NCBI GenBank assembly: GCA_965231055.1
Contig: OZ246411.1
Coordinates: forward strand, 601,875-665,874
From: an uncultured Candidatus Saccharibacteria bacterium
GTDB lineage: Bacteria; Patescibacteriota; CALEFQ01; G965231055
Length of the DNA stretch: 64,000 bases
Direction: 5' to 3'
The notes beneath the pieces are model-generated. The model ran no database searches and was not told the origin of the DNA. It saw only the letters and a program-made list of their open reading frames with translations. Within the stretch, counting starts at the first letter, position 1, and each line of letters opens with the position of its first letter. The position numbers and the translations under genes are program-made. Positions 4,304-19,010 of this stretch are shown here, piece after piece.

Positions 4304-5820
4304 AGACAATACCAACTCCGCGACCAAGAATATATAGATTTTTTGAAATCATGCCAGGGCTTGCTGCATGGTCTGCTTTGGTTTTATTAGTTTTTGCCGG
4401 TATATATTTGCCTGTTTGGGCAGCCGTTATTATTATCGTAGTTGATCTGTATTGGCTTTTTAAGATTACATATCAGTCGGCGTATCTTATTGCAGGATAC
4501 CGAAAAATGAAATCAAATCTTGGAGTTGATTGGTTGAAAAAAGCTAAAAGCATAAAAAATGCCAAGGCAATAAAAGATTTAAATTTTGATAACCTTTATC
4601 ACCTTATTATCTATACGATTTACAACGAGCACGAGGTTATTGAATCTACCCTTGAATCCTTGGCAAAATCCAATTATCCCAAGGATAAAATTATGGTAGT
4701 GGTAACTGCCGAAGAGAAGGGCTACGAGCAAACCAAGGAAGTTTTGGAAAGAATGGAACAAAAATACAAGGGTTTTTTCAAGAAATTTATGATCACGGTG
4801 CATCCATCAGGTATCCCTGGAGAATTGGTTGGCAAAGGATCAAATGAAACTTGGGGAGGTCAGAGAGCCAGGGAGTTTATAGATCAAATGAAAATTCCAT
4901 ATGAGAATATTTTGATTTCTGTTTTTGATATTGATACTCAAATTCACGAGAATTATCTCGCGAGAGTTGCGGAAGCATATTTGAGCCATCCAAATCCTTT
5001 GCGTGTAAGTTATCAACCTATTCCTATATTCATGAACAATGCATGGGATGCACCAGCTATTGCGCGAGTAGTGTCTTGTAGTACTACTTTTTGGCAGATG
5101 ATGGAGCAGGGAAGACCAGAGAGAATGGCTACTTTTTCTAGTCACTCCATGAGCTTTAAAACTATTGTGGATGTTGATTTTTGGAGTACTGATGCGGTAT
5201 CAGAAGACTCTCGAATTTATTGGCAATGTTTATTGCATTACAATGGGGACTATGAAGTGAGTCCATTGTTCTTTCCAGTTTCTATGGATATGGTTTTGGA
5301 CCATTCGTATATGAAAACGTTGGTAAATCAATACAAACAGCAACGCAGATGGGCTTGGGGTGTAGAAAATCTTCCGTATTTGTTCTATGGACTCATGAAA
5401 AATAAACTCATCCATCCATGGATAAAATTCAGATCAGCATATAAATTATGGGACGGTGCATTTTCTTGGGCGACTACAGCTATAATTATCGCAATACTCG
5501 GATGGCTTCCTTTGCTTTTCGGCGGAGATGCTTTTAATAATACTGTTTTTGCGCAAACATTGCCCGTAATCACAAGAACTCTTTCAACTCTTGCAATGAT
5601 CGGACTTTTTACTTCCACTATTATAAGTAATGTTTTGCTTCCCAAAAGACCTGCCCATGAACCATTCTGGAAAAGCATAGCCATGGTGTTTCAATGGTTT
5701 TTGCTTCCAATAACAACTATACTTTTTGGTTCTGTGGTTGCTCTTGATGCTCAGACTCGTCTTATGCTTGGAAAATATATGGGATTTTTTGTAACACCCA
5801 AAGCCCGCAAGCAGCACTAG
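4300..5820 (+). CDS. Processive family-2 glycosyltransferase (cellulose/chitin/PNAG-synthase-like) with N- and C-terminal TM segments
   Basis: GT2 motifs: DxD-like FDIDTQ, TED-like AVSEDSRIYWQ, and the Q-x-x-R-W motif (QQRRWAWG). TM helices flank the catalytic domain. Confidence 0.75.
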   Translation: MKTIPTPRPRIYRFFEIMPGLAAWSALVLLVFAGIYLPVWAAVIIIVVDLYWLFKITYQSAYLIAGYRKMKSNLGVDWLKKAKSIKNAKAIKDLNFDNLYHLIIYTIYNEHEVIESTLESLAKSNYPKDKIMVVVTAEEKGYEQTKEVLERMEQKYKGFFKKFMITVHPSGIPGELVGKGSNETWGGQRAREFIDQMKIPYENILISVFDIDTQIHENYLARVAEAYLSHPNPLRVSYQPIPIFMNNAWDAPAIARVVSCSTTFWQMMEQGRPERMATFSSHSMSFKTIVDVDFWSTDAVSEDSRIYWQCLLHYNGDYEVSPLFFPVSMDMVLDHSYMKTLVNQYKQQRRWAWGVENLPYLFYGLMKNKLIHPWIKFRSAYKLWDGAFSWATTAIIIAILGWLPLLFGGDAFNNTVFAQTLPVITRTLSTLAMIGLFTSTIISNVLLPKRPAHEPFWKSIAMVFQWFLLPITTILFGSVVALDAQTRLMLGKYMGFFVTPKARKQH

Positions 5821-5950
5821 CCTTTAGGTATTAGGTTTTAGGTTATAGTTTTTAGGTTACAGGAGCTAGATTCTGAGTTTCATTGAGCTAAGAATTAAAA
5901 GCCTAACACCCATAACCTAATCCCTAAAACCTATCCTCTAACACCTCGCT
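5821..5950. repeat. Imperfect palindrome built from TTAGG-like pentamer units (left arm TTAGG-rich, right arm CCTAA-rich) around a ~35-nt core
   Basis: Left arm 5823-5862: ttaggtattaggttttaggttatagtttttaggttacagg. Right arm 5899-5947: cctaacacccataacctaatccctaaaacctatcctctaacacc. The reverse complement of one arm aligns to the other in more than one register. Confidence 0.6.
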
Positions 5951-7066
5951 ATGGTAAATCCATTTACATTCTATTTTCTCCCATTTTTAATAGCAATAGC
6001 TATCTCTTTTTTTGCGACTCCACTTTTTGCCAAGATAGCAAAAAAATACAACATAGTAACTAAGCCCAAGCCATCGAGTGAGGGAGGGCGTAAGCAGTGG
6101 CGCAAGGTTCCTTATCTTGGAGGAGTCGTGATTATGATTTCTTTCTTTCTGCTTGTTGCTTATTATGCTTTCTTTTCTGATGATTTGATTGGAGGAATTT
6201 TGCGTTCCAAACATCTTTGGGGAATTTTTGTAGCAGGAATGATAATAATGATTGGAGGAATTTTGGATGATAAATACAATCTTTCACCTAAGGTTCAGTG
6301 GATACCTGGTTTTGTCGCCGCGCTTGTGATAGTTGCAAGTGGAATCGGGATAGAATACATAAACAATCCTTTTGATGGAGTTTGGAGTTTGAGAAATTTT
6401 AGTTTTACATTTTTCTCAATAGGGGATATTCCATATAATATTGTTTTATTTGCAGATATTTTTACTATACTTTGGTTATCTGGTATGGATTATTCTATGC
6501 AATGGATAGATGGCTTTGATGGTTTGGCTCCCGGAATTGCTATTATTGGTTTTATAACCTTATTTTTCTTAAGTGCCTCTAGGGAAGTTATGCAACCAGA
6601 AGTAGCTTTTCTTTCAATAACTCTTGCTGGAGCTATTGCTGGATTCTTACCTTATGCCTGGCCCCCTTCAAAAGTTTTTGGAGGTCAGTGTGGATCTCAG
6701 TTTTGGGGTTTCATGCTTGGCGTACTTGCCATAATAAGTGGGGGAAAGATAGCTACAGCTTTACTAGTACTGGGGATTCCGGTGCTTGATGCTTTTAGGG
6801 TGATAATGCTTAGAATTAAGCACAAAAAAAGCCCATTCAAGGGGGATGCTGAGCATATTCATCATTGGCTACAGCGAGCTGGGCTTTCGGAAAAGCAAAC
6901 TGTTATCTTCCTTTGGTCACTTACCGTGGCACTCGCGGTGACGGCTTTGGCTTTGCAAGGATTTCAAAAGTTCATAGCGCTTATTCTTTTGGTTTTGGCG
7001 GTTGCCTTTATGGTGCTGGTTTTGGCGCTAAAAATAAAGAAAAAGGAGAGAAAGGGTCGTGCTTGA
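5951..7066 (+). CDS. MraY/WecA-family polyprenyl-phosphate N-acetylhexosamine-1-phosphate transferase (GT4 superfamily, 10-11 TM)
   Basis: Polytopic membrane protein. DDxxN-like DDKYN motif, a VPYLGG segment similar to MraY PTMGG, and the signature QWIDGFDGLAPG (NxxDGxDGL). Confidence 0.7.
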   Translation: MVNPFTFYFLPFLIAIAISFFATPLFAKIAKKYNIVTKPKPSSEGGRKQWRKVPYLGGVVIMISFFLLVAYYAFFSDDLIGGILRSKHLWGIFVAGMIIMIGGILDDKYNLSPKVQWIPGFVAALVIVASGIGIEYINNPFDGVWSLRNFSFTFFSIGDIPYNIVLFADIFTILWLSGMDYSMQWIDGFDGLAPGIAIIGFITLFFLSASREVMQPEVAFLSITLAGAIAGFLPYAWPPSKVFGGQCGSQFWGFMLGVLAIISGGKIATALLVLGIPVLDAFRVIMLRIKHKKSPFKGDAEHIHHWLQRAGLSEKQTVIFLWSLTVALAVTALALQGFQKFIALILLVLAVAFMVLVLALKIKKKERKGRA

Positions 7067-7091
7067 CCTATTGCACTTATTTTGGTAGTAT
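7063..7091 (+). promoter_or_regulatory. Sigma70-like promoter upstream of rplU (TTGACC, 17 nt, TAGTAT)
   Basis: -35 TTGACC at 7063-7068, 17-nt spacer, -10 TAGTAT at 7086-7091, about 40 nt upstream of the rplU ATG. Confidence 0.45.
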
Positions 7092-7131
7092 TCGTTCGTT
7101 AATTTGTTTTATTATAACTAATTTTTATCAA

Positions 7132-7446
7132 ATGTTCGCAATTATTGAAGCAAGTGGTCATCAGTATAAAGTAAACAAAGGTGATATTTTTTGTGTAGAT
7201 TTTACAGATCAAAAAGAAGGATCTACCTTGAAATTTGATAATGTGTTGGCTTTGGGTGATGACAAGGGTACTATGAAACTTGGAAGCCCATACATAAAGG
7301 GATCCGTCGTGGAAGCTAAGGTTGTCAAAGAGAATGTTAGAGGTGATAAGCTAAAGATTATCAAGTATACAGCTAAGAAAAGACACAAGCTTACTAAAGG
7401 ATTTAGACACACTTACTCTGAAATCGAAATCGTAAATATAAAATAG
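7132..7446 (+). CDS. rplU: 50S ribosomal protein L21
   Basis: Begins MFAIIEASGHQYKV, a canonical L21 N-terminus, and is 104 aa. The ORF-track entry 6865-7446 is an upstream in-frame extension that overlaps the preceding gene. Confidence 0.9.
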   Translation: MFAIIEASGHQYKVNKGDIFCVDFTDQKEGSTLKFDNVLALGDDKGTMKLGSPYIKGSVVEAKVVKENVRGDKLKIIKYTAKKRHKLTKGFRHTYSEIEIVNIK

Positions 7447-7450
7447 TCCA

Positions 7451-7487
7451 AATAAAAATCACCCTCGTTATGGGGTGATTTTTTTAT
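7451..7487. terminator. Bidirectional intrinsic terminator between rplU (+) and the 5'-3' exonuclease (-)
   Basis: Stem ATCACCC / GGGTGAT with an 8-nt loop, flanked by an A-run upstream and TTTTTTTATT downstream. Confidence 0.7.
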
Positions 7488-8344
7488 TGTAGGTTTTTTA
7501 TCTCGTTCCAATTGTCTTTTAAAAAAGTGCCCATTTTACTTGGAAGCATTTCTTTTGAGAACGCGTAGTGTTCTGACTGAAAGGTTTTTAGTTGACTCTC
7601 TAATAATCTAATTTGTAAAAACTTTTTTTGCTTATTTAAGAAGGTTTTTTTGTTTTTAAGTTTGATTTTGATGTGGCTGGAAATGCTATTGATCGATTTG
7701 TAAATATTTTCTATGCTCCCGTGGTTTCTTATCAGTCTTGATGCGGTCGTATGACCTATTCCTTCAATTCCTTTTATGTTGTCAGAACTATCTCCTTTTA
7801 AAGCTAGATAATCTACATATTGGTGTGGATATATACCGTAACGTTTTTTTGTCTCGGCTCTATCTAAGACTTTATTGGATCCGTGGTGTTGTCGTATTAA
7901 AACAGTGTTGTTATCTACTAGCTGTGTGAAATCGTGATCCTCAGAGCATATGTATACTTTTTGATTGCAACGCGAAAATGCATTAGAGTATGTGCCGATC
8001 AAATCATCTGCCTCATTTTTAGGATCCTCTATCCATTTTATTTTGAGTAGATCTAGGCACCTCTTGATAATTGAAAGTTGATCGTAGATAGACTCGTCAA
8101 CCTTTGGTCGATTAGTTTTGTATTCTGGTTTTTGTGTTTTTTTATTTTTTGTTCCTGTTTCAGAGTCGAATAGTACTAGTGCGTGATCGGGATTCATAGT
8201 AGTGGCAACTGCTCTTGCTAATGCAAAAAAACCATAAACCGCATTTATTGGTGTATCGTCATGCATTTTTGCTTCACAGGGTACGCCATAAAATCCCTTA
8301 AACAAATAATTATGTCCATCAATGAGGATGACCTTTGATTTCAT
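7484..8344 (-). CDS. Stand-alone 5'-3' exonuclease / flap endonuclease (Pol I N-terminal-domain homologue)
   Basis: LIDGHNYLFKGFYG start, acidic metal-binding clusters, and a helix-hairpin-helix region LKGDSSDNIKGIEGIG. Confidence 0.85.
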   Translation of the reverse strand: MKSKVILIDGHNYLFKGFYGVPCEAKMHDDTPINAVYGFFALARAVATTMNPDHALVLFDSETGTKNKKTQKPEYKTNRPKVDESIYDQLSIIKRCLDLLKIKWIEDPKNEADDLIGTYSNAFSRCNQKVYICSEDHDFTQLVDNNTVLIRQHHGSNKVLDRAETKKRYGIYPHQYVDYLALKGDSSDNIKGIEGIGHTTASRLIRNHGSIENIYKSINSISSHIKIKLKNKKTFLNKQKKFLQIRLLESQLKTFQSEHYAFSKEMLPSKMGTFLKDNWNEIKNLQ

Positions 8345-8353
8345 ATTAATTTT

Positions 8354-8953
8354 TTATGCCTCTCTTCTTCCTTTGAGTGCGAGAGTTAGAGTTTGTTCGT
8401 CAGCATATTCTAGGTCTCCTCCAGTGGGAAGACCTCTGGCGATTCTTGTGACTTTGATATCTAAGGGTCTTATGAGTTTTTCTATGTGCATTGCCGTGGC
8501 CTCTCCTTCAAGCGTGGGATTTGTTGCAACAATTACTTCACTTATTTTTTTGGATGTGATTCTTGTTTTTAATTCTTTGAGTTTGATATTTTCTGGACCC
8601 ATGTTGTCGATGGGGGAGATGTTTCCGTGAAGTACATGGTATAGCCCATTGTAACTACCAGTTTTTTCTATAGCGATAAGCTCAAGTGGATGGCTCACTA
8701 CGCATATTGTAGAAGTATCTCTATTTTTGTTGGTACATATTTCACACACATCTTTGGTAGTGATATGAAAACACTCTTTGCATTGTTTTAGGCTTTTCTT
8801 TAATTCGGTGAGTGCTGATGCAAACTTATCTAGTTCCGCTTGATTTTCAGAGAGCATGGCAAAAGCAAGTCGTTCTGCTGACTTTTGGCCAATTCCAGGA
8901 AGCTTCTGAAATTCGTTTATTAGATTTTCTATTGGTTTTGGTAGTACTTGCAT
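8354..8953 (-). CDS. recR: Recombination protein RecR
   Basis: N-terminal HhH (LPGIGQKSAERLAF), C4 zinc finger (CKEC...CEIC) and a Toprim domain. 199 aa. Confidence 0.9.
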   Translation of the reverse strand: MQVLPKPIENLINEFQKLPGIGQKSAERLAFAMLSENQAELDKFASALTELKKSLKQCKECFHITTKDVCEICTNKNRDTSTICVVSHPLELIAIEKTGSYNGLYHVLHGNISPIDNMGPENIKLKELKTRITSKKISEVIVATNPTLEGEATAMHIEKLIRPLDIKVTRIARGLPTGGDLEYADEQTLTLALKGRREA

Positions 8954-8954
8954 T

Positions 8955-9239
8955 TTACATTGAAATTTCTCCGGAACTTATTTTGCGTATCATTAGTTGT
9001 TGGAGTTTGCCCTGGGCATCATTGAAGGCTTCTTTGATTCCGTTTTGGATTTGATCTTTGTTTTCTGGTGTTAGTATTTTTTCGTCAAGTTCGACTGACT
9101 GCATTTCTAGGTTTCCATTTAAAATTACTTTTATCATTCCATTTACAGCTACGCCCTCCAGTGTTTCCTGTTCTAGTGCTGATTTGAGTTTTGTGGCCTG
9201 CTCTTTGGCCTTCATCATGTCGCCAAATTTTCCAAACAT
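8955..9239 (-). CDS. ybaB: YbaB/EbfC-family nucleoid-associated protein
   Basis: 94 aa, MFGKFGDMMKAKEQ...LEGVAVNGMIKVILNGN. Sits immediately upstream of recR, the conserved ybaB-recR arrangement. Confidence 0.85.
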   Translation of the reverse strand: MFGKFGDMMKAKEQATKLKSALEQETLEGVAVNGMIKVILNGNLEMQSVELDEKILTPENKDQIQNGIKEAFNDAQGKLQQLMIRKISSGEISM

Positions 9240-9258
9240 ATTTTTGTATTATATTTAT

Positions 9259-10596
9259 CTAATTATGATTTGTATCTAGGTTTTTGAAGCTAGCTTGGTT
9301 TTCTTGGAAGAATACTTCTACTTCCCCCGTGGGTCCGTTTCTGTGCTTGGCAATAATTATATCTGCTATATTTTTTCTTTCCGTATCTGGTTTTACTTTG
9401 TCTTCTCTGTAAATAAATAAAACAATGTCTGCGTCCTGTTCTATGGTACCGCTTTCTCTTAGGTCTGATAGTTTGGGTCTTTGATCTGGTCTTGCTTCCA
9501 CGGCTCTAGATAGCTGGGACAGGGCTAGCACTGGAACATTTAGTTCTCTGGCTATTCCTTTGAGCTCCCTCGTGATTTCTGAAATTTCTTGAACTCTATT
9601 TTCTTTTGTTCTGCCTTCAAGTAGCTGTAAGTAGTCTATGACAATGAGTCCTAGTCCGTGTTCTGATGCTAGTCTTCTGGCCTTGGTTCGAATTTCCATA
9701 GCATTACTGCTTCCGCTATCATCAATCCAAATTGGAGCTTCGGAAAGTATTCCCATTGCTCTTCCTATTTTGGGAAAATCATCGTCTTCTTCTTTGTTTC
9801 CAAGTTTTCCAGTCCTCATTTTCCAAAGATCTACACCTGCTTCCGCGCAGAGTAGTCTATCTACCAATTGCTCCTTTGACATTTCAACGCTGAAAATTCC
9901 AACTGGTACTTTGGTTTTGACCGCGGCATTTCTCGCCATGTCTAGGGCTAAAGAAGTTTTTCCTATGCTAGGTCTTGCTGCCAATATAACAAGATCCGAT
10001 TTTTGTAATCCCGCAAGGAGATTATCTAGCTCGGTAAATCCAGTGGGTACTCCTCTTAGTCTTCCTCCAGCTTTGTGAAGTTCGTCTATACGATCAAATG
10101 TATCTACGAGTACGTCTTTTACTGGCACGAATTTTTGTTTCATGAACTGCTGAGACACAGAAAAAATTTGTTGCTCTGCGTGGTCCAGTAATTTCACTGT
10201 ATCTGCACCCTCATCATATCCTATTCTTTCTATTTCATTTGCTGCCTTGATGAGATTTCGTAGTGTGGATTTGTTTTTGACTATCTTTGCGTAGTGTTCA
10301 ACATTTGATGCAGTAGGCACCATATTTACAAGAGAAGTAAGAAACGTGGAACCTCCTATTTCTTCTAATATTTTTTTGTTTTTGAGTTTATTTGAAAGAC
10401 TTAGGATGTCTATTGGTTCTTTGCTTTCATATAATTCAATCATGCATTCATAAATCTTTTCATGCACGCCATGATAAAAATCAGAGGCATGTACCATGTC
10501 TGCGATTTTGACTATTGCATCCTTGTCCAACATAACAGAGCCCAAAAGGGATTTTTCTGCATCTAGATTTTGTGGGGGTATTTTTACGGAGGTCAC
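9259..10596 (-). CDS. dnaB: Replicative DNA helicase DnaB
   Basis: N-terminal DnaB domain (LDAEKSLLGSVMLD). C-terminal RecA-like domain with Walker A (ARPSIGKTSLALDMA) and Walker B (IVIDYLQLL). Confidence 0.9.
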   Translation of the reverse strand: MTSVKIPPQNLDAEKSLLGSVMLDKDAIVKIADMVHASDFYHGVHEKIYECMIELYESKEPIDILSLSNKLKNKKILEEIGGSTFLTSLVNMVPTASNVEHYAKIVKNKSTLRNLIKAANEIERIGYDEGADTVKLLDHAEQQIFSVSQQFMKQKFVPVKDVLVDTFDRIDELHKAGGRLRGVPTGFTELDNLLAGLQKSDLVILAARPSIGKTSLALDMARNAAVKTKVPVGIFSVEMSKEQLVDRLLCAEAGVDLWKMRTGKLGNKEEDDDFPKIGRAMGILSEAPIWIDDSGSSNAMEIRTKARRLASEHGLGLIVIDYLQLLEGRTKENRVQEISEITRELKGIARELNVPVLALSQLSRAVEARPDQRPKLSDLRESGTIEQDADIVLFIYREDKVKPDTERKNIADIIIAKHRNGPTGEVEVFFQENQASFKNLDTNHN

Positions 10597-10725
10597 GGAG
10601 GTTTTTATTTAATTAGATATGTCTTATTAGTATATACTTTTATTCAAACTGCCTCAACCCCCAATATTTCACAAAAATGGCTTAATCTAGTAATATGATG
10701 TTGATATCCTGTTAATCAAATTGAC

Positions 10726-11250
10726 TTGAGTCTATCTACCAAAATCCAAAGCGATATACTCTATTTTTTGGACAAAAGCAGTCGAGAGTTTGAAAAACAC
10801 TCCTGGGACTTGTTTTTGCGCCCAGAAGTGCAGAAATGCTCAGAAATCAATCATCACGGGTATTATAGTAGGCTAGAACACATGATACTGGTGGGAAAAC
10901 TAGCTGTACACATAGCTGACAAGCTTGGCGCTGATAAAAAGACATGTGCTAGGGCAGGTATTCTTCATGATATAGGTCAGTATGGCAATGGACTAAAAAT
11001 TGAAGGCAAACGCAGGTTTGATACCAGTTGGGCCAAAAAATATGCTGAGGAAATAGGCGAGAGTCAGGAAGTACAAAATGCTATCTTGTCTCACCATCCT
11101 TCTTTTCGCTGGCCCAAAACCAGAGAAGCATACATTATTGTTCTGGCTGATTGGTTTTCTAGTATCATAGAATGGTCGGCAATATTTGGAAATAAACTAA
11201 AAGACTGGGCCGGGAGATTTGGCGCCAATGTTCATCACAACGTAAGCTAG
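10726..11250 (+). CDS. Small HD-domain phosphohydrolase (TTG start in the ORF track)
   Basis: His..HD motif (HHGYYSRLEH ... GILHDIGQ) and a downstream LADW acidic motif. Confidence 0.55.
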   Translation: MSLSTKIQSDILYFLDKSSREFEKHSWDLFLRPEVQKCSEINHHGYYSRLEHMILVGKLAVHIADKLGADKKTCARAGILHDIGQYGNGLKIEGKRRFDTSWAKKYAEEIGESQEVQNAILSHHPSFRWPKTREAYIIVLADWFSSIIEWSAIFGNKLKDWAGRFGANVHHNVS

Positions 11251-11252
11251 TT

Positions 11253-12206
11253 TTAGTCCAATACTTTTTTTAGTTCGTCAATAGAATCGATTTTCACGAG
11301 CTGGCTTCTGAGTTTGGATGCGCCCTCATACCCCTTGAAATACCATGCTAAGTGCTTACGCATAGGGAGAAAATAAGAGTCTTGTTTTAAATATAATTGT
11401 GAATGGCGTATCGCCATTTTTTTGCGCTTGGAAAAATCTATCTCGCGATCTTTTCCTTTCTTAATATTTTCAAATACCCATGGATTACCAAAAGCACCTT
11501 GTCCTATCATCACTCCATCGCATCCAGTTTTTTCTATCATCTCACGATAAGTTTTGTGATCTTTAACTCCGCCATTTCCTATTACTATAGTTTTTGGCAT
11601 ATTGGTTTTGACAAAATCTACTACCTCCTTGATTGCGTCAAAATCTATGCTACCCCCAAATCCTTGTTCTAGGCTCCTTCCGTGAACGGCTATGGCAGAA
11701 AGGTTTAATCTAGATAACTCTTTTACAATATCAATAGCTTTTATTGTCTTGTTATCTGTTTTGGCGGAGGCTCTTAGCTTTATGGAAACGGGTAGTTTGG
11801 TGCTGTTAACTACATTTTCAACTACTTGCCTTGCGAGCTTTGGATTTTGCATGAGTACAGATCCAGATCCACTTTTGCGAATCTTTTTGGCAGGGCAGCC
11901 CATGTTGATATCTATTCCTTGAGGATTTATCTCTTTTTCTATGATTTTTACGGCCTTGCCGAAATACTCGGGACGTCCTCCAAATAGCTGAACTATATAG
12001 GGCTTTTCCTTTTTAGTGTATTTAGAAAGCTCTAGTGTTTTTTCTGAATTATGACAAAGTCCCATGACGCTTATCATTTCAGAGTACAAAACATCTGCAC
12101 CAAAATCCTTACAGATACCTCTAAAAATACTATCAGAAATCCCTGCAAGGGGAGCGAGACATAAAAATCCTTTATTTAGTTTTTGCCAAAAATTGGGTCT
12201 TTCCAT
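11253..12206 (-). CDS. dus: tRNA-dihydrouridine synthase (the ATG at 12206 is the likely start; the ORF track begins at TTG 12212)
   Basis: FLCLAPLAGISDSIFRGI...IDINMGCPAKKI matches the FMN-binding TIM-barrel motifs of the Dus family. Confidence 0.85.
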   Translation of the reverse strand: MERPNFWQKLNKGFLCLAPLAGISDSIFRGICKDFGADVLYSEMISVMGLCHNSEKTLELSKYTKKEKPYIVQLFGGRPEYFGKAVKIIEKEINPQGIDINMGCPAKKIRKSGSGSVLMQNPKLARQVVENVVNSTKLPVSIKLRASAKTDNKTIKAIDIVKELSRLNLSAIAVHGRSLEQGFGGSIDFDAIKEVVDFVKTNMPKTIVIGNGGVKDHKTYREMIEKTGCDGVMIGQGAFGNPWVFENIKKGKDREIDFSKRKKMAIRHSQLYLKQDSYFLPMRKHLAWYFKGYEGASKLRSQLVKIDSIDELKKVLD

Positions 12207-12234
12207 TGACAAAATATGAGATTAATGTTATAAG
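12206..12234 (+). promoter_or_regulatory. Near-consensus sigma70-type promoter for small ORF A (TTGACA, 17 nt, TATAAG)
   Basis: TTGACA at 12206-12211, 17-nt spacer, TATAAG at 12229-12234. This overlaps the divergent dus start. Confidence 0.55.
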
Positions 12235-12269
12235 TGACCTCAGTTCAACATCTAACGAGGAGGTGGGTA

Positions 12270-12590
12270 ATGGATCGAAGAACGGTGCAAAATTGTATCA
12301 AGGCTCTTGCAGCTCAGGGAATAACTGCAGACGATGCTTCTTTCCTCATCAAAACAACTTCTCAAGGAGACCGTATAAGTGAATATGGTGAAAAAACAGA
12401 GCTGACCAAAATCTGGATCGAGCGAAAAAACAGATTTATTATTCAGCTCATCGGTCGAGAACTCGGAATTGGGATGGGTGATTTTCCGAATGTTGGTTTG
12501 CAGATTAAAAGCGAAAATGAAGAAACAAGCGGGAAAATCATTAGTTTTGTTGAAGACTTATTAAGTGTTGCGACAATGGCGCTCAAATAG
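12270..12590 (+). CDS. Small hypothetical protein A (106 aa), corrected start with a strong SD
   Basis: SD GAGGAGG at 12257-12263 lies 6 nt before ATG 12270. The ORF-track start 12234 sits on the -10 element. About 40% GC, higher than the surroundings. Confidence 0.5.
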   Translation: MDRRTVQNCIKALAAQGITADDASFLIKTTSQGDRISEYGEKTELTKIWIERKNRFIIQLIGRELGIGMGDFPNVGLQIKSENEETSGKIISFVEDLLSVATMALK

Positions 12591-12616
12591 CGGCGACAGA
12601 TGCTCTTTTATGAGTC

Positions 12617-12656
12617 GCAGTCGGATGCACCTCATGCGTTCGACTGCTTTTTTATT
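12617..12656 (+). terminator. Intrinsic terminator after small ORF A
   Basis: GCAGTCG ... CGACTGC stem with an internal mini-hairpin, followed by TTTTTTATT. Confidence 0.65.
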
Positions 12657-12788
12657 GGTTGTTGTCTAAATGGACAATCCAATTTTTGCCAGAAACATTT
12701 CTGCATTGATTTTTTTCTACTACAATATGTAGATATACTAATTTGTTTTTGTGTTTTTATCAAATTTGCCAAAAATTAGGCCTTGCTA

Positions 12789-12818
12789 TTGACATTTTTA
12801 CTAAAACATGTTAATAAT
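12789..12818 (+). promoter_or_regulatory. Sigma70-type promoter for small ORF B (TTGACA, 17-18 nt, TAATAAT)
   Basis: TTGACA at 12789-12794 and AATAAT/TAATAA at 12812-12818. Confidence 0.5.
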
Positions 12819-12858
12819 ATAAAAAATGACCAAAACTGTCTTTTTACAAGGAGGAATT

Positions 12859-13191
12859 ATGACTTTGCATTATAAGGCTATAAAAAACGTGCTTGAAAGA
12901 TTGTCGGCCATGGGTGTGAATGAAAGAAATGCGGATCTCGCATTTACTGTCGTCGTGATTGAGAATGATTCGTCTATAAAATTCGCAAGTCTAGAAGTTG
13001 AGTATCTCTTAGAGTGCCTTGTGAGATTACTCGGGTTGAGATGTTTCGATGGTGATCTTATGAGCGTTAATAGCGCAATTGAAAACGGAGACCGTCGAGA
13101 GTTAGAAGTAAATCGAAAAATCATGGAAAAAAGTTGCGCTCATTTTCGAGCAGTGATTGCTGTCGCAAAAACAGTTATTGGTGTTGACTAA
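12859..13191 (+). CDS. Small hypothetical protein B (110 aa), weak paralogue of A, corrected start with a strong SD
   Basis: SD AAGGAGG at 12848-12854 precedes ATG 12859. The ORF-track start 12826 lies at or before the predicted TSS. N-terminal similarity to A (xNxIKALxAxGI vs xNVLERLSAMGV). Confidence 0.5.
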   Translation: MTLHYKAIKNVLERLSAMGVNERNADLAFTVVVIENDSSIKFASLEVEYLLECLVRLLGLRCFDGDLMSVNSAIENGDRRELEVNRKIMEKSCAHFRAVIAVAKTVIGVD

Positions 13192-13219
13192 CAGTCTCTA
13201 TTATTTCCGATCATTTGGT

Positions 13220-13250
13220 GGCTAGTGCTTCTTGCGCTAGCCTTTTTTAT
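13220..13250 (+). terminator. Intrinsic terminator after small ORF B
   Basis: GGCTAGTGC / GCGCTAGCC stem (one G-U pair), 5-nt loop, TTTTTTATTT tail. Confidence 0.7.
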
Positions 13251-13316
13251 TTCTCTTTTTGAGTGTGCGATACTGTGGTAAAGTGAATTATATATACTCT
13301 AACTTGTTTATCGTTT

Positions 13317-13976
13317 ATGGTAAAGTCTGTTGTTATAATTATTGTTATCACCGGTACTGTGTTTTTTTGCGTATTGGGAATTTGGATTTACTTTAGCTTG
13401 TTTGCATCAAAAAGGATCTACGTTTCAAATGACAGTTTGCCTGAAAAATACGTTGCCATAGTGCTGGGTGCTAAGGTTTATTCAAACGGCAATCCTTCCG
13501 ATATGCTCGAAGACAGATTGCTCACGGCATTTGATTTGTATAAAGCGGGTAAAGTTAAGAGATTTTTGCTTTCAGGAGATCATGGGACTACTTCTTATGA
13601 TGAAGTTGACGGGATGAAAAATTATCTCACGAAACTCGGAGTAAAAAAAGAAGATATTTTTTTGGATCACGCTGGGTTTGATACTTATGATTCTATGTAT
13701 AGAGCTAGAGAGATTTTTGAGGTTAGGGATGCGCTTATCGTAACTCAGGGGTATCATTTACCAAGAGCGGTTTTTCTCGCGAGGAAGCTTGGCATAGATG
13801 CCGAAGGTGTAATTGCAGATAGAAGACCGTATAGGAATTCAAATATCTTTAAAGCGAGAGAGCTTGGTGCTCAAGTTAAATCGTTTTTTGAGTTGGTATT
13901 TAGAATAAAGCCTAAGCACCTGGGTGAACAGATTCCGATCACGGGTGATAGTAGTGCTAGCTTTGATGATAAATAG
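13317..13976 (+). CDS. SanA/YdcF-like (DUF218) membrane-anchored protein
   Basis: N-terminal TM followed by LSGDHGTTSYDEV...LDHAGFDTYDSMYRAR...VTQGYHLPRAV, characteristic of the DUF218 fold. Confidence 0.6.
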   Translation: MVKSVVIIIVITGTVFFCVLGIWIYFSLFASKRIYVSNDSLPEKYVAIVLGAKVYSNGNPSDMLEDRLLTAFDLYKAGKVKRFLLSGDHGTTSYDEVDGMKNYLTKLGVKKEDIFLDHAGFDTYDSMYRAREIFEVRDALIVTQGYHLPRAVFLARKLGIDAEGVIADRRPYRNSNIFKARELGAQVKSFFELVFRIKPKHLGEQIPITGDSSASFDDK

Positions 13977-13985
13977 ATAGTATTA

Positions 13986-14018
13986 AAAAAATCGACTCGT
14001 TAGAGCCGATTTTTATTT
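13986..14018. terminator. Bidirectional terminator between the sanA-like gene (+) and cysS (-)
   Basis: AATCGACTC / GAGCCGATT stem flanked by an A-run and a T-run. Confidence 0.55.
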
Positions 14019-14021
14019 GTA

Positions 14022-15431
14022 TTATTTAGTTTTCCAAGTGGTTCCTTTGTCTGTGTCTTTTATTTCTACTCCCATTTTAGATAGCTCATCTCTTATTTGG
14101 TCAGAAGTTTCAAAATCCTTATTTTTTCTCGCATCGTCTCTTTTTTTAATGAGCTCTTCTATTTTTATTTCGTCTAGTTGATTTAGTGGTTTATACTCAA
14201 GAATGCCAAAAACTTTATCTATTTGAGCTAATGAGCTTAGAATCCTGGATGCTTCTTTTGGTTTGAGATTATTTTCGTCTATTTTCGCATTGGTTTCTCG
14301 CATAAAATCAAAAAGATTTGCAATGGCGAGTGGTGTATTTAGATCATCATTCATAGCCTTTATGAAGGGATCTACCAGTGATTTATCTAGTTCGTTATCC
14401 GATTTCTTGCCACTGACAGCTATTAGTTTCTCCTTGAATTCAATAATTCTTTCCAATTTGGTTTTGGCTTCATTCATCGATTCCCATGTGAAATTTAGAT
14501 TTGATCTGTAGTGGGAGGAGAGAACAAAAAATCTAAATACAATAGGGGAATATCCTTTTGCTACTATGTCTTCTACGAGCATGGCATTGCCTTCTGATTT
14601 ACCCATGCGCTTGCCATCAACCATCATATGTCGTTTGTGAATCCAGTAATTTACAAATTTTTTGCCTGTTGCGGATTCTGTTTGGGCGATTTCACATTCA
14701 TGGTGTGGAAAGATATTGTCCTCGCCACCCGTGTGTATGTCAATCTGCGAGCCCAGATATCGCATGCTCATGGCGGAGCATTCTATGTGCCATCCTGGAA
14801 AACCTCGTCCCCATGGAGAATCCCATCCGAGTGGATAGTTTTTGGGAACTTTCTGCCAAAGCATAAAATCGAGTGGATCTTTTTTGTCGGGATGTGGCTC
14901 TATGCGATTTCCAGTTTTCAAGTTTTCAAGAGTATTTCCGGAGAGCTTGCCGTATTCTTTATATTTTTTGGTCACAAAAAATACATTGCCGTTTGCTTCA
15001 TATGCAAAATCTTTTTCTATAAGAGTTTTGATGAGCTCTATCATGTCTGGTACGTGCATTGATGCTTCTACAAATTTTTGCGGAAACTTTATATTCAAGG
15101 CCGTCAGATCTTTCTTAAAAGCCTCTTCATAGAAATTTGCTATTTCTTGCGGTGTCTTTTGTTGTGTTTTTGATGCTTTTATCATCTTGTCCTCGCCAAA
15201 TTCTGAATCTTGGGTGAGGTGTCCGAAATCTGTAAAGTTCATTATGTGAAGCACCTCGTATCCAGAAAATTCCAAATACTTTTTGACCACGTCTACCATA
15301 AGATAAGAGGTCATATTTCCAAGTTGTGCATACGAGTAAACAGTCGGACCGCAACTGTAAATTTTGACTTTACCTTTTTCTATTGGCTTGAATTCTTCCT
15401 TTTGCTTTGTGAGCGTGTTATATAAAAGCAT
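14022..15431 (-). CDS. cysS: Cysteinyl-tRNA synthetase
   Basis: Class I core: CGPTVYSYAQLGN (HIGH-region analogue) and KMGKSEGN (KMSKS). C-terminal DALR-like helical domain. Confidence 0.9.
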   Translation of the reverse strand: MLLYNTLTKQKEEFKPIEKGKVKIYSCGPTVYSYAQLGNMTSYLMVDVVKKYLEFSGYEVLHIMNFTDFGHLTQDSEFGEDKMIKASKTQQKTPQEIANFYEEAFKKDLTALNIKFPQKFVEASMHVPDMIELIKTLIEKDFAYEANGNVFFVTKKYKEYGKLSGNTLENLKTGNRIEPHPDKKDPLDFMLWQKVPKNYPLGWDSPWGRGFPGWHIECSAMSMRYLGSQIDIHTGGEDNIFPHHECEIAQTESATGKKFVNYWIHKRHMMVDGKRMGKSEGNAMLVEDIVAKGYSPIVFRFFVLSSHYRSNLNFTWESMNEAKTKLERIIEFKEKLIAVSGKKSDNELDKSLVDPFIKAMNDDLNTPLAIANLFDFMRETNAKIDENNLKPKEASRILSSLAQIDKVFGILEYKPLNQLDEIKIEELIKKRDDARKNKDFETSDQIRDELSKMGVEIKDTDKGTTWKTK

Positions 15432-15529
15432 TCGAGTGTTTATTTGGATCTAATATGCTCAATTTTAATCCACTTTTGAGCTTTTGTACAGAAGATTTAT
15501 ATGTTATAATATTTAGGTTAAAAAATACT

Positions 15530-16438
15530 ATGCAAAATCAAAACCAAAACTCAAATATCTCCATTGAGGATTTACTAAAAGAACACAAAAACGATCTCAA
15601 AAAACCGTCTCCAGTTTCTGCTCCACAAAAAGACAAACCAAGTCAGGTGCTCTCAGATGATCCTTCAAAAGAGTCTATTTCAAAAACACCCCAAGCTCCA
15701 AAACCAGTGGTTAATCAACCAAAACCCGCCGCTTCTTCAAATTCACCAATTGCTCCCAAAAAAGAAGCAGCGGATAATGATTTACCGGATCCCTCAAAAG
15801 TAGCAGAGCAAGTAATCCAAAAAATAAGACCAAAGGAAGATGATGCTGTTGTGGATTCAAAAGATCAATCAATAAATAAAACAAAAGACAGCAGTGTGTT
15901 TTTTGATACCAAAATAGAGACAGAAAAAAATATGAATTTGGGAAGAGTGGATGCTGAACCTAAAAAAGAAACAAAGCCAAACGAAGCACTAGCTGAAAAT
16001 GCTATTGAAAATACCAAATTTGAATCTCTTAAAAAACTTGATGAAGCTGATATAAGGAAGAAGATAGAGCAGCTCGAGACGGAGCTAAACGAGAGAAACA
16101 ACATAGGAGAATCAAAAAGCGTAGAAGCAAAAACAGAATCACTTTCCAGTGATATTCCAGAAACAAAAAAACCATTAGAACTAGAGAAAAAAGAAGATGA
16201 GGATATACGAAAAATAGATTCTCAAGTAAAACTTCCTGATGAGCTCAATATAGATTTACTAGGTAAGCTTCCCAAAGAAGATCAAGTAAAAGTTTTGACC
16301 AACGTAGTTTATAAAGATGGTTTGTATAAGGCGATAAATACAGCTATCAAGCTTGGAGATCCGTACCTTATGGATTTACTTCACGACGCTTTAGTGGATG
16401 AGCTTTACGCAAAATTAAAAGCAGGTAAAAAGAGTTAA
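15530..16438 (+). CDS. K/E/P-rich low-complexity protein, predicted largely disordered, with a conserved C-terminal helical segment
   Basis: Likely start is MQNQNQ at 15530, preceded by an extended -10 element TGTTATAAT at about 15503-15511. The track start 15455 lies upstream of this promoter. No TM segments. Confidence 0.45.
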   Translation: MQNQNQNSNISIEDLLKEHKNDLKKPSPVSAPQKDKPSQVLSDDPSKESISKTPQAPKPVVNQPKPAASSNSPIAPKKEAADNDLPDPSKVAEQVIQKIRPKEDDAVVDSKDQSINKTKDSSVFFDTKIETEKNMNLGRVDAEPKKETKPNEALAENAIENTKFESLKKLDEADIRKKIEQLETELNERNNIGESKSVEAKTESLSSDIPETKKPLELEKKEDEDIRKIDSQVKLPDELNIDLLGKLPKEDQVKVLTNVVYKDGLYKAINTAIKLGDPYLMDLLHDALVDELYAKLKAGKKS

Positions 16439-16458
16439 TTATTAAATAATACTCAAAG

Positions 16459-18948
16459 TTGGATACATCATTGTTTTATCAGCCCGATTCAATAGCGATA
16501 ATGTTTGTAGGGGGAGTTATTGCAATAGCTTTGTCTATTGTGTTTTTTAAGATCTATAAAAAACAACAGAAAATTGATGTGGCGCTAGATACCGAATTAC
16601 TCCTCATAACAGTGCCCAAAGATGTTTCTGAAAAAGAAGAAGAGGGAAAAAAGGACATAAAAGAAGTTATTAGTTTTTCTGAGCAGATGTTTGCCAATCT
16701 TTACAGCATTTCCAAACCCAAGAAAAAACTTTTCAAACTGAAAAAATATGTGACATTTGAGATAGTTGCAAATGACAACAAAATTTCTTTTTATATTTCT
16801 ACTCCACGAAACAAAAAAGATTTGGTGGAGAAAATAATTACTGCGCAATACCCCAAAGCAATAGTTGAGCGCGTGGAAGACTACAATATATTCAATCCAG
16901 GAAGCAGTGTTTTCGCTGAAGAACTTAGGCTTGCAGAAGCTCACATCTTGCCTATAAAAACATATAAACACCTAGAAACCGATCCTTTGTCATCGGTCAC
17001 TAACTCTTTGTCAAAACTCGATTCAGACGAGGGCGCTGCCATACAGATTCTGATACAGCCCGCTGATCCTAGGTGGGGAAAAAATGCCTCTAAAATTGTT
17101 TCAAAGATGGTAAAAGAGGGAAAGACCCTGTCTAGTGCTATGGGTGGAGGAAGTATATTGAAAGACATGGGATCCGAGCTTGGGTCTGGACTAAAAGCTT
17201 TTTCTAAAACCAATAAGCCAGACTCAAATCAGCCACCTCAATTATCACAGTATCAGCAAGAAGTTTCTAAAATGGTTGAAGAAAAGGCGAATAAGCTTGC
17301 CTTTGAAACCAAAATACGAATCGTAGCATCATCTAGCTCAAAGGAAAAAGCAGAGATGCTGGTTACAAATATTATCTCTTCGTTCACTCAGTTTTCAAAC
17401 CCAGGACTCAATCGTTTTGATAAACCAAAATTTGTTTTGAATAGAAAACAGATAGTGCAGGACTATATTTTCCGTAGATTTGGAAGTGATAAGAAAATTA
17501 TGACGCTCAATACCGAAGAGCTTGCTAGTATTTTTCACCCACCCACGAGAGCGCTGGAAACCCCAAATCTAAATATATTGGAGTCACGAAAAACCCCAGC
17601 TCCAAACAATCTTTCAAAGGACGGAGTTACAATGGGAGAAAATAATTATCGAGGAGTAGCTACTACTGTCAAGATTTCTCGTAAAGATAGGGAGAGACAT
17701 TTGTATACAATAGGCACCACCGGAAGTGGTAAAACCACATTACTTGAAAATATGTGCAAGCAAGACATTCTAAATGGAGATGGTGTTTGCGTACTTGATC
17801 CTCATGGAAGTTTTGTCGAAGATATTTTAAGTATAATACCAAAAGAAAGGGCAGAAGATGTTGTGCTTTTTGATCCGGGAGATACTGAGCGTCCCATAGG
17901 CCTCAACATGCTTGAATGCAATTCAAGTGCCCCTGAACAAAGAGATCTGGTGGTAAATGAAATGATTGCAATATTTCACAAGCTTTTTCCGCCTGAAATG
18001 ACCGGACCTATTTTTGAGCACAACATGAGAAATGTGATGCTTACTCTTATGGAAGACATGAATGATCCGGGTACCATAGTAGAAATACCTCGCATGTTTA
18101 CAGATGAGGAATTTGCCAAAGAGAAGTTAAAGCATGTAAAAGATCCTATAGTGCGTCAGTTTTGGGAAAAAGAAATGGCGAAGACCTCTGATTTCCATAA
18201 ATCAGAAATGCTTGGATATTTGGTGAGCAAAGTGGGACAGTTCGTAGAAAACTCACTGATGAGAAACATACTCGGTCAGCAAAAATCAGGACTTGATTTT
18301 GCAAAGATTATGAATGAAGGCAAAATCTTGCTTTGCAATCTTTCAAAAGGAAAAGTGGGTGATATAAATAGTTCTCTACTTGGACTGATTATTCAGTCTA
18401 GACTCCAAATAGCTGCATTTGAACGCGTGAAAATTCCCGAAGAAGAGCGCAAGCCATTTTATGTTTACATGGACGAGTTTCAAAACTTTGTCACTCCTAC
18501 TATTGCCACTGTGCTTTCTGAGGCTAGGAAATATAAATTGATTCTAAATTTGGCTCATCAATACATCGCTCAGCTTGTAACTGAAAAAGGATCAGAGGTG
18601 AGAGATGCAGTTTTCGGAAACGTGGGAACTATATGTGTTTATAGAGTTGGTGCTCAGGACGCAGAGTATTTGGAAAAAGAATTTCATCCAGTTTTTACTC
18701 AGAGTGATTTGATTCACACGGAAAGATTCCATGCCAATTTGAAATTAATGGTAGATGGAACTACCAGCAGGCCATTCACGATGAAAGCATTTGCATTTGA
18801 AAAAGGAGATGATAAGAATAGAGAAATCATAAGAGAACTTTCAAGACTCAAATACGGTAAAGCCAAAGAGCAAGTAGATGCTGACATAGGAAGAAGAGCG
18901 AAACTTGGAGGCACTGCACCCGCAAAAGACAGGATTCCCGAGTTTTAG
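16459..18948 (+). CDS. VirD4/TraG/TrwB-like (DUF87/HerA-FtsK superfamily) P-loop ATPase with an N-terminal TM anchor
   Basis: One N-terminal TM. Walker A TIGTTGSGKTT, a coupling-protein-like VLDPHGS motif, and Walker B FYVYMDEFQNF. 829 aa. Confidence 0.55.
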   Translation: MDTSLFYQPDSIAIMFVGGVIAIALSIVFFKIYKKQQKIDVALDTELLLITVPKDVSEKEEEGKKDIKEVISFSEQMFANLYSISKPKKKLFKLKKYVTFEIVANDNKISFYISTPRNKKDLVEKIITAQYPKAIVERVEDYNIFNPGSSVFAEELRLAEAHILPIKTYKHLETDPLSSVTNSLSKLDSDEGAAIQILIQPADPRWGKNASKIVSKMVKEGKTLSSAMGGGSILKDMGSELGSGLKAFSKTNKPDSNQPPQLSQYQQEVSKMVEEKANKLAFETKIRIVASSSSKEKAEMLVTNIISSFTQFSNPGLNRFDKPKFVLNRKQIVQDYIFRRFGSDKKIMTLNTEELASIFHPPTRALETPNLNILESRKTPAPNNLSKDGVTMGENNYRGVATTVKISRKDRERHLYTIGTTGSGKTTLLENMCKQDILNGDGVCVLDPHGSFVEDILSIIPKERAEDVVLFDPGDTERPIGLNMLECNSSAPEQRDLVVNEMIAIFHKLFPPEMTGPIFEHNMRNVMLTLMEDMNDPGTIVEIPRMFTDEEFAKEKLKHVKDPIVRQFWEKEMAKTSDFHKSEMLGYLVSKVGQFVENSLMRNILGQQKSGLDFAKIMNEGKILLCNLSKGKVGDINSSLLGLIIQSRLQIAAFERVKIPEEERKPFYVYMDEFQNFVTPTIATVLSEARKYKLILNLAHQYIAQLVTEKGSEVRDAVFGNVGTICVYRVGAQDAEYLEKEFHPVFTQSDLIHTERFHANLKLMVDGTTSRPFTMKAFAFEKGDDKNREIIRELSRLKYGKAKEQVDADIGRRAKLGGTAPAKDRIPEF

Positions 18949-18969
18949 TTTTTTTGACACTATAATGAA

Positions 18970-19010
18970 ATAAAAAACCGGTGTGGAAAAACCCACGCCG
19001 GTTTGTAAAA
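18970..19010. terminator. Bidirectional intrinsic terminator
   Basis: AACCGGTGTGG / CCACGCCGGTT stem with an AAAAA loop. A-run on one side and T-run on the other. Confidence 0.7.

Follow-up and report, generated by a model that had tools for sequence, protein, structure and literature searches.

Two tandem small-protein genes beside dus in a Candidatus Saccharibacteria genome: a putative taxonomically restricted family with fast turnover

Two small plus-strand open reading frames, ORF A and ORF B, stand in tandem beside dus in the window (the whole 64-kb stretch of DNA that was analysed), and the question raised by this locus is what kind of genes they are and how they came to occupy this position. 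The initial annotation described them as two self-contained cassettes of signals unusually complete for this genome, and proposed a horizontally acquired two-gene module that might be toxin/antitoxin-like, accessory to phage defence or regulatory. Judged from the sequence of the locus and of its closest relative, we consider it reasonably probable that A and B instead represent a fast-turnover, taxonomically restricted tandem family of monocistronic small-protein genes.

Coding status and expression signals of ORF A and ORF B

ORF A (12270..12590, plus strand; ATG at 12270, TAG at 12590) encodes 106 aa with a pI of 5.5 and showed neither a signal peptide nor a membrane segment by eye, while ORF B (12859..13191, plus strand; ATG at 12859, TAA at 13191) encodes 110 aa with a pI of 5.7. 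The codon log-likelihood of each was the highest of the six frames (A 0.184; B 0.139), compared with an off-frame 95th percentile of 0.103 and a gene mean of 0.249 (sd 0.074), and the codon usage of both resembles that of the host. Both therefore appear to be genuine protein-coding genes. The raised GC content that had been noted for the two ORFs is present (A 40.3%, B 40.0%; mean 35.9%, sd 2.4 in 41 long window ORFs), but it exceeds the mean of local genes by only approximately 1.7 sd and is a high-normal value inside the gene range of 30.6–41.5%, so that neither ORF is an outlier and a compositional island at A–B was rejected.

The database gene call P0001 is identical to ORF A, and the database call for ORF B begins at ATG 12826 to give 121 aa, a position that approximates the predicted transcription start. 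The initial annotation preferred the internal ATGs linked to Shine-Dalgarno (SD) sequences over upstream starts at 12234 and 12826, and this preference is supported by the sequence, although the alternative start of ORF A at 12234 is a GTG and not the ATG that had been reported. ORF C, the counterpart of these genes in the relative L025, has an in-frame stop seven codons 5' of its ATG (by eye), and an N-terminal extension is therefore not conserved. The ORF B start in the public annotation was likely mis-called and is corrected here.

Each gene is preceded by a promoter of the form TTGACA-N14-TGt extended -10. For ORF A, the -35 box (TTGACA, 12206-12211, plus strand) is separated by a 17-nt spacer from TATAAG (12229-12234), which with TG at 12226-12227 makes up the extended -10 element TGtTATAAG (12226..12234, plus strand). 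For ORF B, the -35 box (TTGACA, 12789-12794, plus strand) is followed by an extended -10 element (12809..12818, plus strand) in which TGt precedes either TAATAA (12812-12817, 17-nt spacing) or AATAAT (12813-12818, 18-nt spacing). Across both strands of the 64-kb window, just six sites match the promoter consensus at 11/12 or better (3.2 expected, sd 1.6), and those of A and B are two of them. The SD sequences are GAGGAGG for A (12257..12263, plus strand), 6 nt 5' of the ATG, and AAGGAGG for B (12848..12854, plus strand), 4 nt 5' of the ATG.

Both genes also end in an intrinsic terminator on the plus strand. That of ORF A (12617..12653) consists of a hairpin at 12617-12647 with a 13-bp stem and a 5-nt loop followed by T6 (MFE -25.2 kcal/mol, z -3.45, for a folded stretch of 70 nt), and that of ORF B (13220..13248) of a hairpin at 13220-13242 with a 9-bp stem and a 5-nt loop, again followed by T6 (MFE -19.4, z -5.67, for 69 nt). 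These two terminators rank first and second within positions 1-20000 of the window and have few equals elsewhere. The 268-nt gap between A and B thus contains a strong terminator as well as a second promoter. The earlier description of two complete, self-contained cassettes was borne out by these signals, and both genes are monocistronic as predicted from them. Each would form its own transcription unit of promoter, 5' UTR of approximately 30–35 nt with a canonical SD, ORF and Rho-independent terminator, with an abundant mRNA of approximately 410–430 nt as the predicted product, starting near 12241 for A and near 12825 for B, and A and B are probably highly expressed.

Distribution and kinship of the family

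A word-indexed search for relatives of A and B among 5.8 billion clustered proteins returned self matches only, each protein being a single sequence (one cluster member) with 3 contigs counted. Protein-level relatives of B were sought by this search, while an exhaustive phmmer search was run for A and found A itself and one spurious match, P0123, a 1631-aa STAND/WD40 protein rejected as a homologue since its repeats match 'KIW...' by chance. A, B and C had nothing significant in Pfam, NCBIfam, PHROGs or PADLOC, in agreement with the earlier statement that neither A nor B has a recognisable domain, and the Pfam listing at E up to 10 held HTH_43, MarR_2 and Extensin-like_C only. When A, B, C and their alignment were compared with PDB sequences, the sole match was the designed helical repeat 7udk, through a generic helix / G-V-N loop / helix pattern, and an Rfam scan of the locus gave sub-threshold noise. 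Mobile-element or phage cargo was likewise rejected as an identity for the pair: tblastn found no match to B in phages or plasmids, the A/B/C alignment had none in viral contigs, and there is no integrase or tRNA near A–B. Recent horizontal acquisition is not supported either, since these phage, plasmid and viral searches were empty, the codons are host-like and GC lies inside the gene range. As far as these sequence comparisons reach, the A/B family is restricted to this bacterium and its one close relative.

That sole close relative is L025 (ERR4067841), whose Dus is 85% identical. Its ORF C is an intact frame of 106 aa in the A–B slot beside dus, with a promoter (TTGACA-17-TGtTAGAAA), a GGAGG sequence and a hairpin of its own. 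At the DNA level, L025 matches the window at 85% across the HD-domain gene and dus, and this homology ends abruptly at 12193. For dus, the comparison gave a pS of 0.49 and a dS of 0.80; for A and C, pS was 0.72–0.80, the level of unrelated genes (0.72, sd 0.06) in an uncertain alignment with few sites, and pN was 0.54–0.59. The ORF beside dus in L025 would thus be a different, deeply diverged member of the family. The A–B block predates the split from this 85% relative. The genes around it are dnaB, recR, ybaB, the HD-domain gene, dus, a DUF218 gene and cysS, and the A–B–DUF218 block breaks the cysS–dus adjacency of relatives with 48–49% Dus identity. The relatives P0006, P0017 and P0026 have cysS–dus adjacency or ribosomal genes and no small divergent ORF, JGI metagenome matches with Dus 48–60% identical have an unrelated upstream context, and the closest Dus in the species-representative genome set is only 39% identical, in a scan that did not return the source genome itself. 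The genome is gene-dense and 843,892 bp (approximately 0.84 Mb) in size, and its Dus is closest to Patescibacteria proteins.

The initial annotation also suggested that A and B are weakly similar over their N-termini and form a duplicated family, which our analysis upheld in part. BLASTP detected no similarity between A and B, neither BLASTP nor phmmer detected that of A–B or A–C, and the profile-profile comparison by hhalign was marginal, its best A–B match (residues 4-24 against 6-26; P = 0.038, probability 1.4%) covering the N-terminal segment quoted in that annotation, the significance of which was seen only in shuffle tests. In those tests, global alignments gave z values of 3.6 for A–B and 4.3 for A–C, full-length B–C alignment was not significant (1.7–1.9), and alignments of the first 35–37 aa gave 4.2–5.8. 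The first ~28 codons of A, B and C match in register: in-frame ungapped nucleotide identity over codons 2–29 was 38–46% among the three (A–C, p = 0.003; A–B, p = 0.03; C–B, p = 0.0005), compared with 27.9% (sd 5%) among unrelated window genes. The three proteins are also alike in length, pI and a C-terminal amphipathic helix. An A/B/C HMM and phmmer, run against every six-frame ORF of the window and of 28 loci, recovered no further paralogue, and blastn of the locus against the window showed no DGR-type pairing of a template with a variable repeat. Because BLASTP, phmmer and hhalign were negative or marginal, homology is argued from the shared position, the repeated promoter and shuffle statistics of modest strength. 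A and B probably arose by duplication within one family and then diverged, since they share a repeated 30-nt module, 28 N-terminal codons in register and the A–B shuffle score, and a third member occupies the slot in L025.

The repeated promoter module and its dus origin

The 30-nt module (TTTGCCAAAAATTRGGYCTTKCYATTGACA) occurs in two copies that are 583 nt apart and 26/30 identical, and no further copy with up to three mismatches was found in the 64 kb (0 expected). Copy 1 (12182..12211, plus strand) joins 24 nt that double as codons of dus (the N-F-W-Q-K stretch) to the -35 box of ORF A; this stretch contains a 13-nt perfect palindrome, TTTTTGCCAAAAA, at 12180-12192, just 5' of that box. Copy 2 (12765..12794, plus strand), which includes the -35 box of ORF B, is non-coding, and its minus strand reads ARPNFWQ (by eye), comparable with ERPNFWQ at the Dus N-terminus of the same genome; it agrees with this N-terminus and not with that of the L025 Dus. 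A decayed third copy of the dus 5' end and promoter module lies between A and B at 12662..12735, with TTTTTGCCAGAAA at 12683-12695 followed by ATTGAT ... TAGATA. It has no ORF downstream and is similar to the L025 promoter, and its orientation is ambiguous because of the palindromic core. Three of the window's five TTTGCCARAAA sites fall in the A–B locus (0.56 expected).

These observations are consistent with A and B having arisen when a unit bounded on its left within the first dus codons was duplicated in tandem, which would explain the upstream module and -35 box that the two copies have in common. The family may then have turned over by birth and death, probably via recombination between the repeated promoter modules, and with very little constraint on sequence; nothing would remain recognisable except the first ~28 codons and, more faintly, the C-terminal amphipathic helix. 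The locus can be read as a clean, well-delimited example of orphan-gene birth and turnover, in which a module with the neighbour's first codons was duplicated and the copies then lost sequence similarity about as fast as unrelated sequence would.

Alternatively, the slot may be anchored by its promoter, such that homology is confined to the promoter, SD and first ~28 codons and unrelated bodies have been swapped in by recombination at the module, which would imply a polymorphic or contingency-type locus. Similarity declines along the unit in a manner that favours this interpretation, from 87% in the module to ~60% in the spacer and UTR, 38–46% in the early codons and background beyond, and so do the abrupt end of L025 homology, the saturation of synonymous sites beside a dus with a dS of 0.8, and the module remnant that lacks an ORF. 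However, the full-length A–B and A–C alignments exceeded their shuffles, the three proteins share length, pI and a similar C-terminal helix, no recombinase, integrase or donor cassette was seen in the window, and A and B are each one invariant sequence on the contigs counted. We therefore regard such swapping as unlikely. A rather unlikely extension is that these genes form a rapidly diversifying array in a CPR episymbiont, the promoter and N-terminal module from the dus 5' end being the recombination substrate for variable C-terminal bodies; through this module the bodies would multiply, disappear or be exchanged as the array kept up with a changing partner (a host, competitor or phage factor), which would make it a type of contingency or arms-race locus undescribed for these bacteria.

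The divergence of these genes can also be interpreted as that of weakly constrained, decaying, young or non-functional ORFs, or of transcripts acting as RNA, with the expression signals as leftovers. Protein divergence near neutral (the A–C pN given above), codon scores towards the low end of the gene distribution and the lack of homologues would fit this interpretation. Set against it are three frames of 106–110 codons, each behind a strong SD, that were kept despite saturated divergence, where the chance of an open 106-codon frame is estimated at ~5e-4 with ~7% stop codons at this base composition; in addition no Rfam family reached threshold, and a genome of this size would hardly be expected to retain 1.1 kb of useless DNA with its best promoters and terminators. 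We consider decay improbable, and retain a duplicated family of protein-coding genes as the preferred reading.

Candidate functions and comparison with known systems

AlphaFold2 models of A (four-helix; pLDDT 59.6) and B (helical; pLDDT 50.7) are of low confidence, for which reason the term helical is tentative, and the residue pattern permits a beta-hairpin after the first helix. Foldseek comparison of both low-confidence models with the PDB gave best E values of 1.6–1.7. The products would be mildly acidic, cytoplasmic proteins of ~12 kDa that are probably mostly helical. As the proteins are small and apparently strongly expressed, lose similarity fast while the ORF stays intact, and show no enzymatic or DNA-binding signature, we infer a putative partner-binding role (as an adaptor, antagonist or immunity-like protein) rather than catalysis. 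Orphan bacteriocin and colicin immunity genes encode acidic, helical, cytoplasmic proteins of ~85–115 aa and are individually promoted, tandemly duplicated and poorly conserved. By analogy, A and B may be likened to such arrays in size, acidity, predicted helicity, own promoters, tandem arrangement and low conservation; unlike them, they have no adjoining toxin, bacteriocin or secretion gene, match no Pfam immunity family and are known from low-confidence models. Should A and B prove to bind partners and to diversify, they would indicate a hitherto unknown interaction in an episymbiont.

A regulatory role was considered in the form of a degenerate winged-helix-derived A that binds the palindromic module and autoregulates the locus. 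A matches HTH_43 below threshold (E 0.012, 15.9 bits), its 118-aa GTG form reaches 20.5 bits and also touches MarR_2, and the palindrome lies just 5' of the -35 box. Both scores are nevertheless under the gathering cut-off of 27 and B and C have no match; the proteins start where helix 3 would lie and so lack helices 1–2, the extension is impossible in C, and no complete H1-H2-H3-wing unit is present. The proteins are also acidic (pI 5.5–5.7), and the dus codons AAT-TTT-TGG-CAA-AAA account for the palindrome. The winged helix-turn-helix assignment was rejected, and autoregulation by A is quite improbable.

Two further families were rejected. C residues 6-47 match only T. thermophilus AroH and its derivatives (E 0.08–0.16), and A and B match AroH only via their first 13 residues; as an AroH-class chorismate mutase this lead has a single species match, no family-level support (Pfam gives C no family) and no similarity to B. 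subtilis AroH, and the ORFs begin ~20 residues too late for the first beta-strand with the catalytic Arg. WXG100/Esx pairs resemble A and B as paired, acidic, probably helical proteins of ~100 aa in a host of the Patescibacteria group, but by eye A, B and C contain no W-x-G (tryptophan is absent from B and C, and A has W-I-E) and there is no WXG100 Pfam match.

A horizontally acquired toxin-antitoxin or anti-phage accessory module is very improbable: the proteins are small orphans of slightly raised GC in a block that interrupts cysS–dus, and like type II toxin-antitoxin pairs they are adjacent and on one strand, but unlike such pairs they have separate promoters with a terminator and 268 nt between them and so form no single operon, their products resemble each other as paralogues rather than as toxin and antidote, no toxin-antitoxin family was matched significantly in Pfam, NCBIfam or PADLOC, PADLOC-DB v2 gave no match to a known defence system at E up to 10, PHROGs and the phage, plasmid (B) and viral-contig (A/B/C) searches were empty, and the neighbours, among them dnaB, recR, ybaB, dus and cysS, are housekeeping and not defence genes. 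A–B is an ordinary orphan-gene pair, and nothing ties it to toxin-antitoxin function or phage defence.

Lineage-specific unknown gene clusters in Patescibacteria number 54,343, of which 45,788 are species-specific (Vanni et al. 2022, PMC9132574), and A/B would add one more orphan family to the tens of thousands already present in this phylum. A and B are like other Patescibacteria/CPR orphan genes in being small and lacking homologues beyond the immediate lineage, and unlike them in their unusually complete, strong expression signals and in an origin traceable to duplication of a module that includes the first dus codons. The two genes probably mark two of the strongest constitutive promoter/SD/terminator sets of the genome, which are possible expression parts for CPR work.

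Expression signals and start codons of A and B

The two orphan small-protein ORFs, A (12270–12590, 106 aa) and B (12859–13191, 110 aa), both lie on the plus strand in the interval between dus (11253–12212, minus strand) and a DUF218/SanA-type gene (13317–13976). A is preceded on the plus strand by a TTGACA −35 box (12206–12211), a TATAAG −10 hexamer 17 nt after it (12229–12234) with a TG two bases 5′ of the hexamer, and a GAGGAGG SD (12257–12263) with its ATG 6 nt downstream, and is followed by a 13-bp terminator hairpin (12617–12647) and then T6. B has a plus-strand TTGACA (12789–12794), a −10 element read as TGt-TAATAA at 17 nt or AATAAT at 18 nt from it, a plus-strand AAGGAGG SD (12848–12854) and a 9-bp hairpin (13220–13242) followed by T6. 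The initial annotation of two ORFs that each possess their own promoter, SD and terminator was borne out by promoter counts, terminator ranks and folding energies. Only six promoter sites reached at least 11 of 12 positions in the whole window (expected 3.2, sd 1.6), two of them being those of A and B, and the two hairpins were the top two terminator-like sites in window 1–20000, the remainder of the window having few to match them. Minimum free energies were −25.2 kcal/mol for the 70-nt folded stretch of A (z = −3.45 against shuffles) and −19.4 kcal/mol for the 69-nt stretch of B (z = −5.67). The expression signals of A and B thus exceed chance, and both genes are predicted to be expressed independently and, probably, strongly. 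Other strong hairpins of terminator type are few in the window and occur where convergent or housekeeping genes end (7454–7483 and 21708–21729); the source genome does have intrinsic terminators, but sparsely.

Of the six reading frames, the annotated one scored best by codon log-likelihood in both ORFs (A 0.184; B 0.139), above the off-frame 95th percentile (0.103) and in the low part of the range spanned by real genes (mean 0.249, sd 0.074). The raised GC content of A and B (40%), previously singled out, is not an outlier, being about 1.7 sd above the mean for long ORFs in the window (35.9%, sd 2.4, range 30.6–41.5). The sole close relative found, a 1587-bp Logan contig (L025) with a Dus 85% identical, carries a third intact ORF, C, of 106 codons in the same slot and orientation, with its own TTGACA-17-TGtTAGAAA promoter, GGAGG and hairpin. 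Since a stop codon closes the C frame seven codons 5′ of its ATG (read by eye), the SD-linked ATGs are the conserved starts, as had been proposed for A and B. The alternative start at 12234, given initially as ATG, is in fact GTG. The public gene call for B (P0002, 121 aa) begins at ATG 12826, about where predicted transcription begins, and is probably too long; a start at the SD-linked ATG 12859 agrees better with the N-termini of A and C. An Rfam scan gave no family at threshold.

Probable common descent and the promoter module

Promoter module, alignment statistics, 5′ nucleotide identity and physical properties agree in suggesting, with moderate confidence, that A, B and C form one family of common descent. 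The N-terminal likeness of A and B noted initially stood up in shuffle and nucleotide tests but not in database-style comparison: BLASTP and phmmer found no similarity in any pair, and hhalign of A+C against B recovered only the N-terminal 21 residues already quoted (P = 0.038, probability 1.4%). Global alignment against 2000 shuffles gave z values of 3.6 (A–B) and 4.3 (A–C), and the first 35–37 residues exceeded shuffles in all pairs (z 3.9–5.8). Codons 2–29, aligned in start-codon register, were 38–46% identical at the nucleotide level in comparison to 27.9% (sd 5%) for in-frame segments of unrelated window genes (p = 0.003, 0.03 and 0.0005 for the three pairs); past about codon 30, identity was at background. 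The proteins are also alike in length, pI (5.5–5.7) and a C-terminal amphipathic stretch, and their promoters have in common a TTGACA-N14-TGt-TAnnAn layout.

The −35 box and the preceding 24 nt form a 30-nt module repeated 583 nt apart (12182–12211 and 12765–12794; 26/30 identical). A third, decayed copy with no ORF behind it lies between the A terminator and the B module (TTTTTGCCAGAAA at 12683–12695, then ATTGAT ... TAGATA), and no further copy occurs elsewhere in the window. All three share as their core a perfect 13-nt palindrome, TTTTTGCCAAAAA (12180–12192), which arises as the reverse complement of dus codons AAT-TTT-TGG-CAA-AAA (N-F-W-Q-K) and could act as a recombination hot spot; three of the window's five TTTGCCARAAA sites fall within this 600-bp stretch (expected 0.56). 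Copy 1 overlaps the first dus codons. Copy 2 is non-coding, and its minus strand reads ARPNFWQ by eye, resembling the Dus of its own genome (ERPNFWQ) and not the L025 N-terminus (KEYDFWQ), which argues that the duplicated unit started inside dus.

The dus start codon (TTG 12212 or ATG 12206) lies against, or partly within, the −35 box of the A promoter (window 12204–12215), and in L025 (425–440) the dus ATG is inside the spacer of the C promoter. No dus SD or good sigma-70 match was detected on the minus strand at 12213–12400, so dus mRNA would start either opposite the A 5′ region or from a distant upstream site, in which case it would run antisense to A and B.

Divergence and proposed turnover of the locus

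The window and L025 are 85% identical in DNA across an HD-domain gene and dus, stopping at 12193. For dus, pS was 0.49, dS 0.80 and dN/dS 0.10. Between A and C, pS (0.72–0.80; few sites and an uncertain alignment) was indistinguishable from the value for unrelated genes (0.72, sd 0.06), and the same held for the 28 codons at the 5′ end, which align without gaps. At face value, and with the sister lineage represented by one short contig, these values suggest that the A–C split predates the divergence of the two genomes. The pattern fits an array in which the repeated modules mediate both duplication and loss of members, so that differing members would come to adjoin dus. Cassette replacement, or very rapid local evolution, is also possible.

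Homologue searches, putative role and genomic setting

Against 5.8 billion clustered proteins, A and B each matched only themselves, and exhaustive phmmer of A against 1.84 billion representatives added one spurious WD40-repeat match. The initial statement that neither has a known domain holds, as Pfam, NCBIfam, PHROGs and PADLOC gave nothing significant. PDB sequence searches gave no meaningful match. Phage and plasmid collections yielded no tblastn match to B, and viral contigs none to the A/B/C alignment. AlphaFold2 without an alignment produced helical models of low confidence (pLDDT 59.6 and 50.7) that are unreliable, and Foldseek with these models found nothing.

Two candidate identities were rejected. 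The HTH_43 match of A was sub-threshold, neither B nor C had one, and the ORFs start at the helix 3 position. Residues 6–47 of C match Thermus thermophilus AroH chorismate mutase (E about 0.1), without Pfam support and with A and B matching through their first 13 residues only; similarity to B. subtilis AroH was not found, and a designed helical repeat matches the same generic helix/G-[IV]-[NT] motif.

A, B and C are best interpreted as a family of small cytoplasmic proteins, taxonomically restricted in distribution, that arose by tandem duplication and whose sequences are very weakly constrained. Because enzymatic and DNA-binding signatures are absent and the frame is kept open despite saturated divergence, a putative partner-binding role (adaptor, antagonist or immunity-like) is suggested. 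The toxin/antitoxin-like reading fails, as A and B are separate units split by a terminator and their products resemble each other. Phage-defence and mobile-element readings are without support, given the blank PADLOC, phage, plasmid and viral searches and the housekeeping neighbours (dnaB, recR, ybaB, cysS). Orphan genes of this kind abound in Patescibacteria, where 54,343 lineage-specific unknown clusters, mostly species-level, have been reported (PMC9132574), and the pair is unsurprising to a specialist; its mild interest lies in its pattern of turnover and in a promoter module whose origin can be traced.

In two distant relatives with Dus 48–49% identical (L026, 2487–4969; L027, 1867–4966), cysS lies immediately 5′ of dus and in the same orientation. 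The window has about 1.8 kb between them (12213–14021), occupied by A, B and the DUF218 gene, each encoded on the other strand. This block, which splits the cysS–dus pair of the relatives, therefore reflects an old insertion or rearrangement and predates the split from L025. Metagenome relatives with Dus 48–60% identical (L017, 25–799; L015, 7–1301) have other ORFs upstream of dus, including fragments resembling by eye parts of type I restriction enzymes, so the region is variable across the wider clade. Separately, a DUF8128 + TraG/TrwB-like ATPase gene (829 aa) in window 15455–18948 is preceded by an unannotated low-complexity ORF (327 aa), the corresponding ORF being 172–176 aa in L026 (6818–8969) and L027 (6616–8966). 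In distant relatives too, this pair stays only a few kb from dus, and it may be a conserved CPR module.
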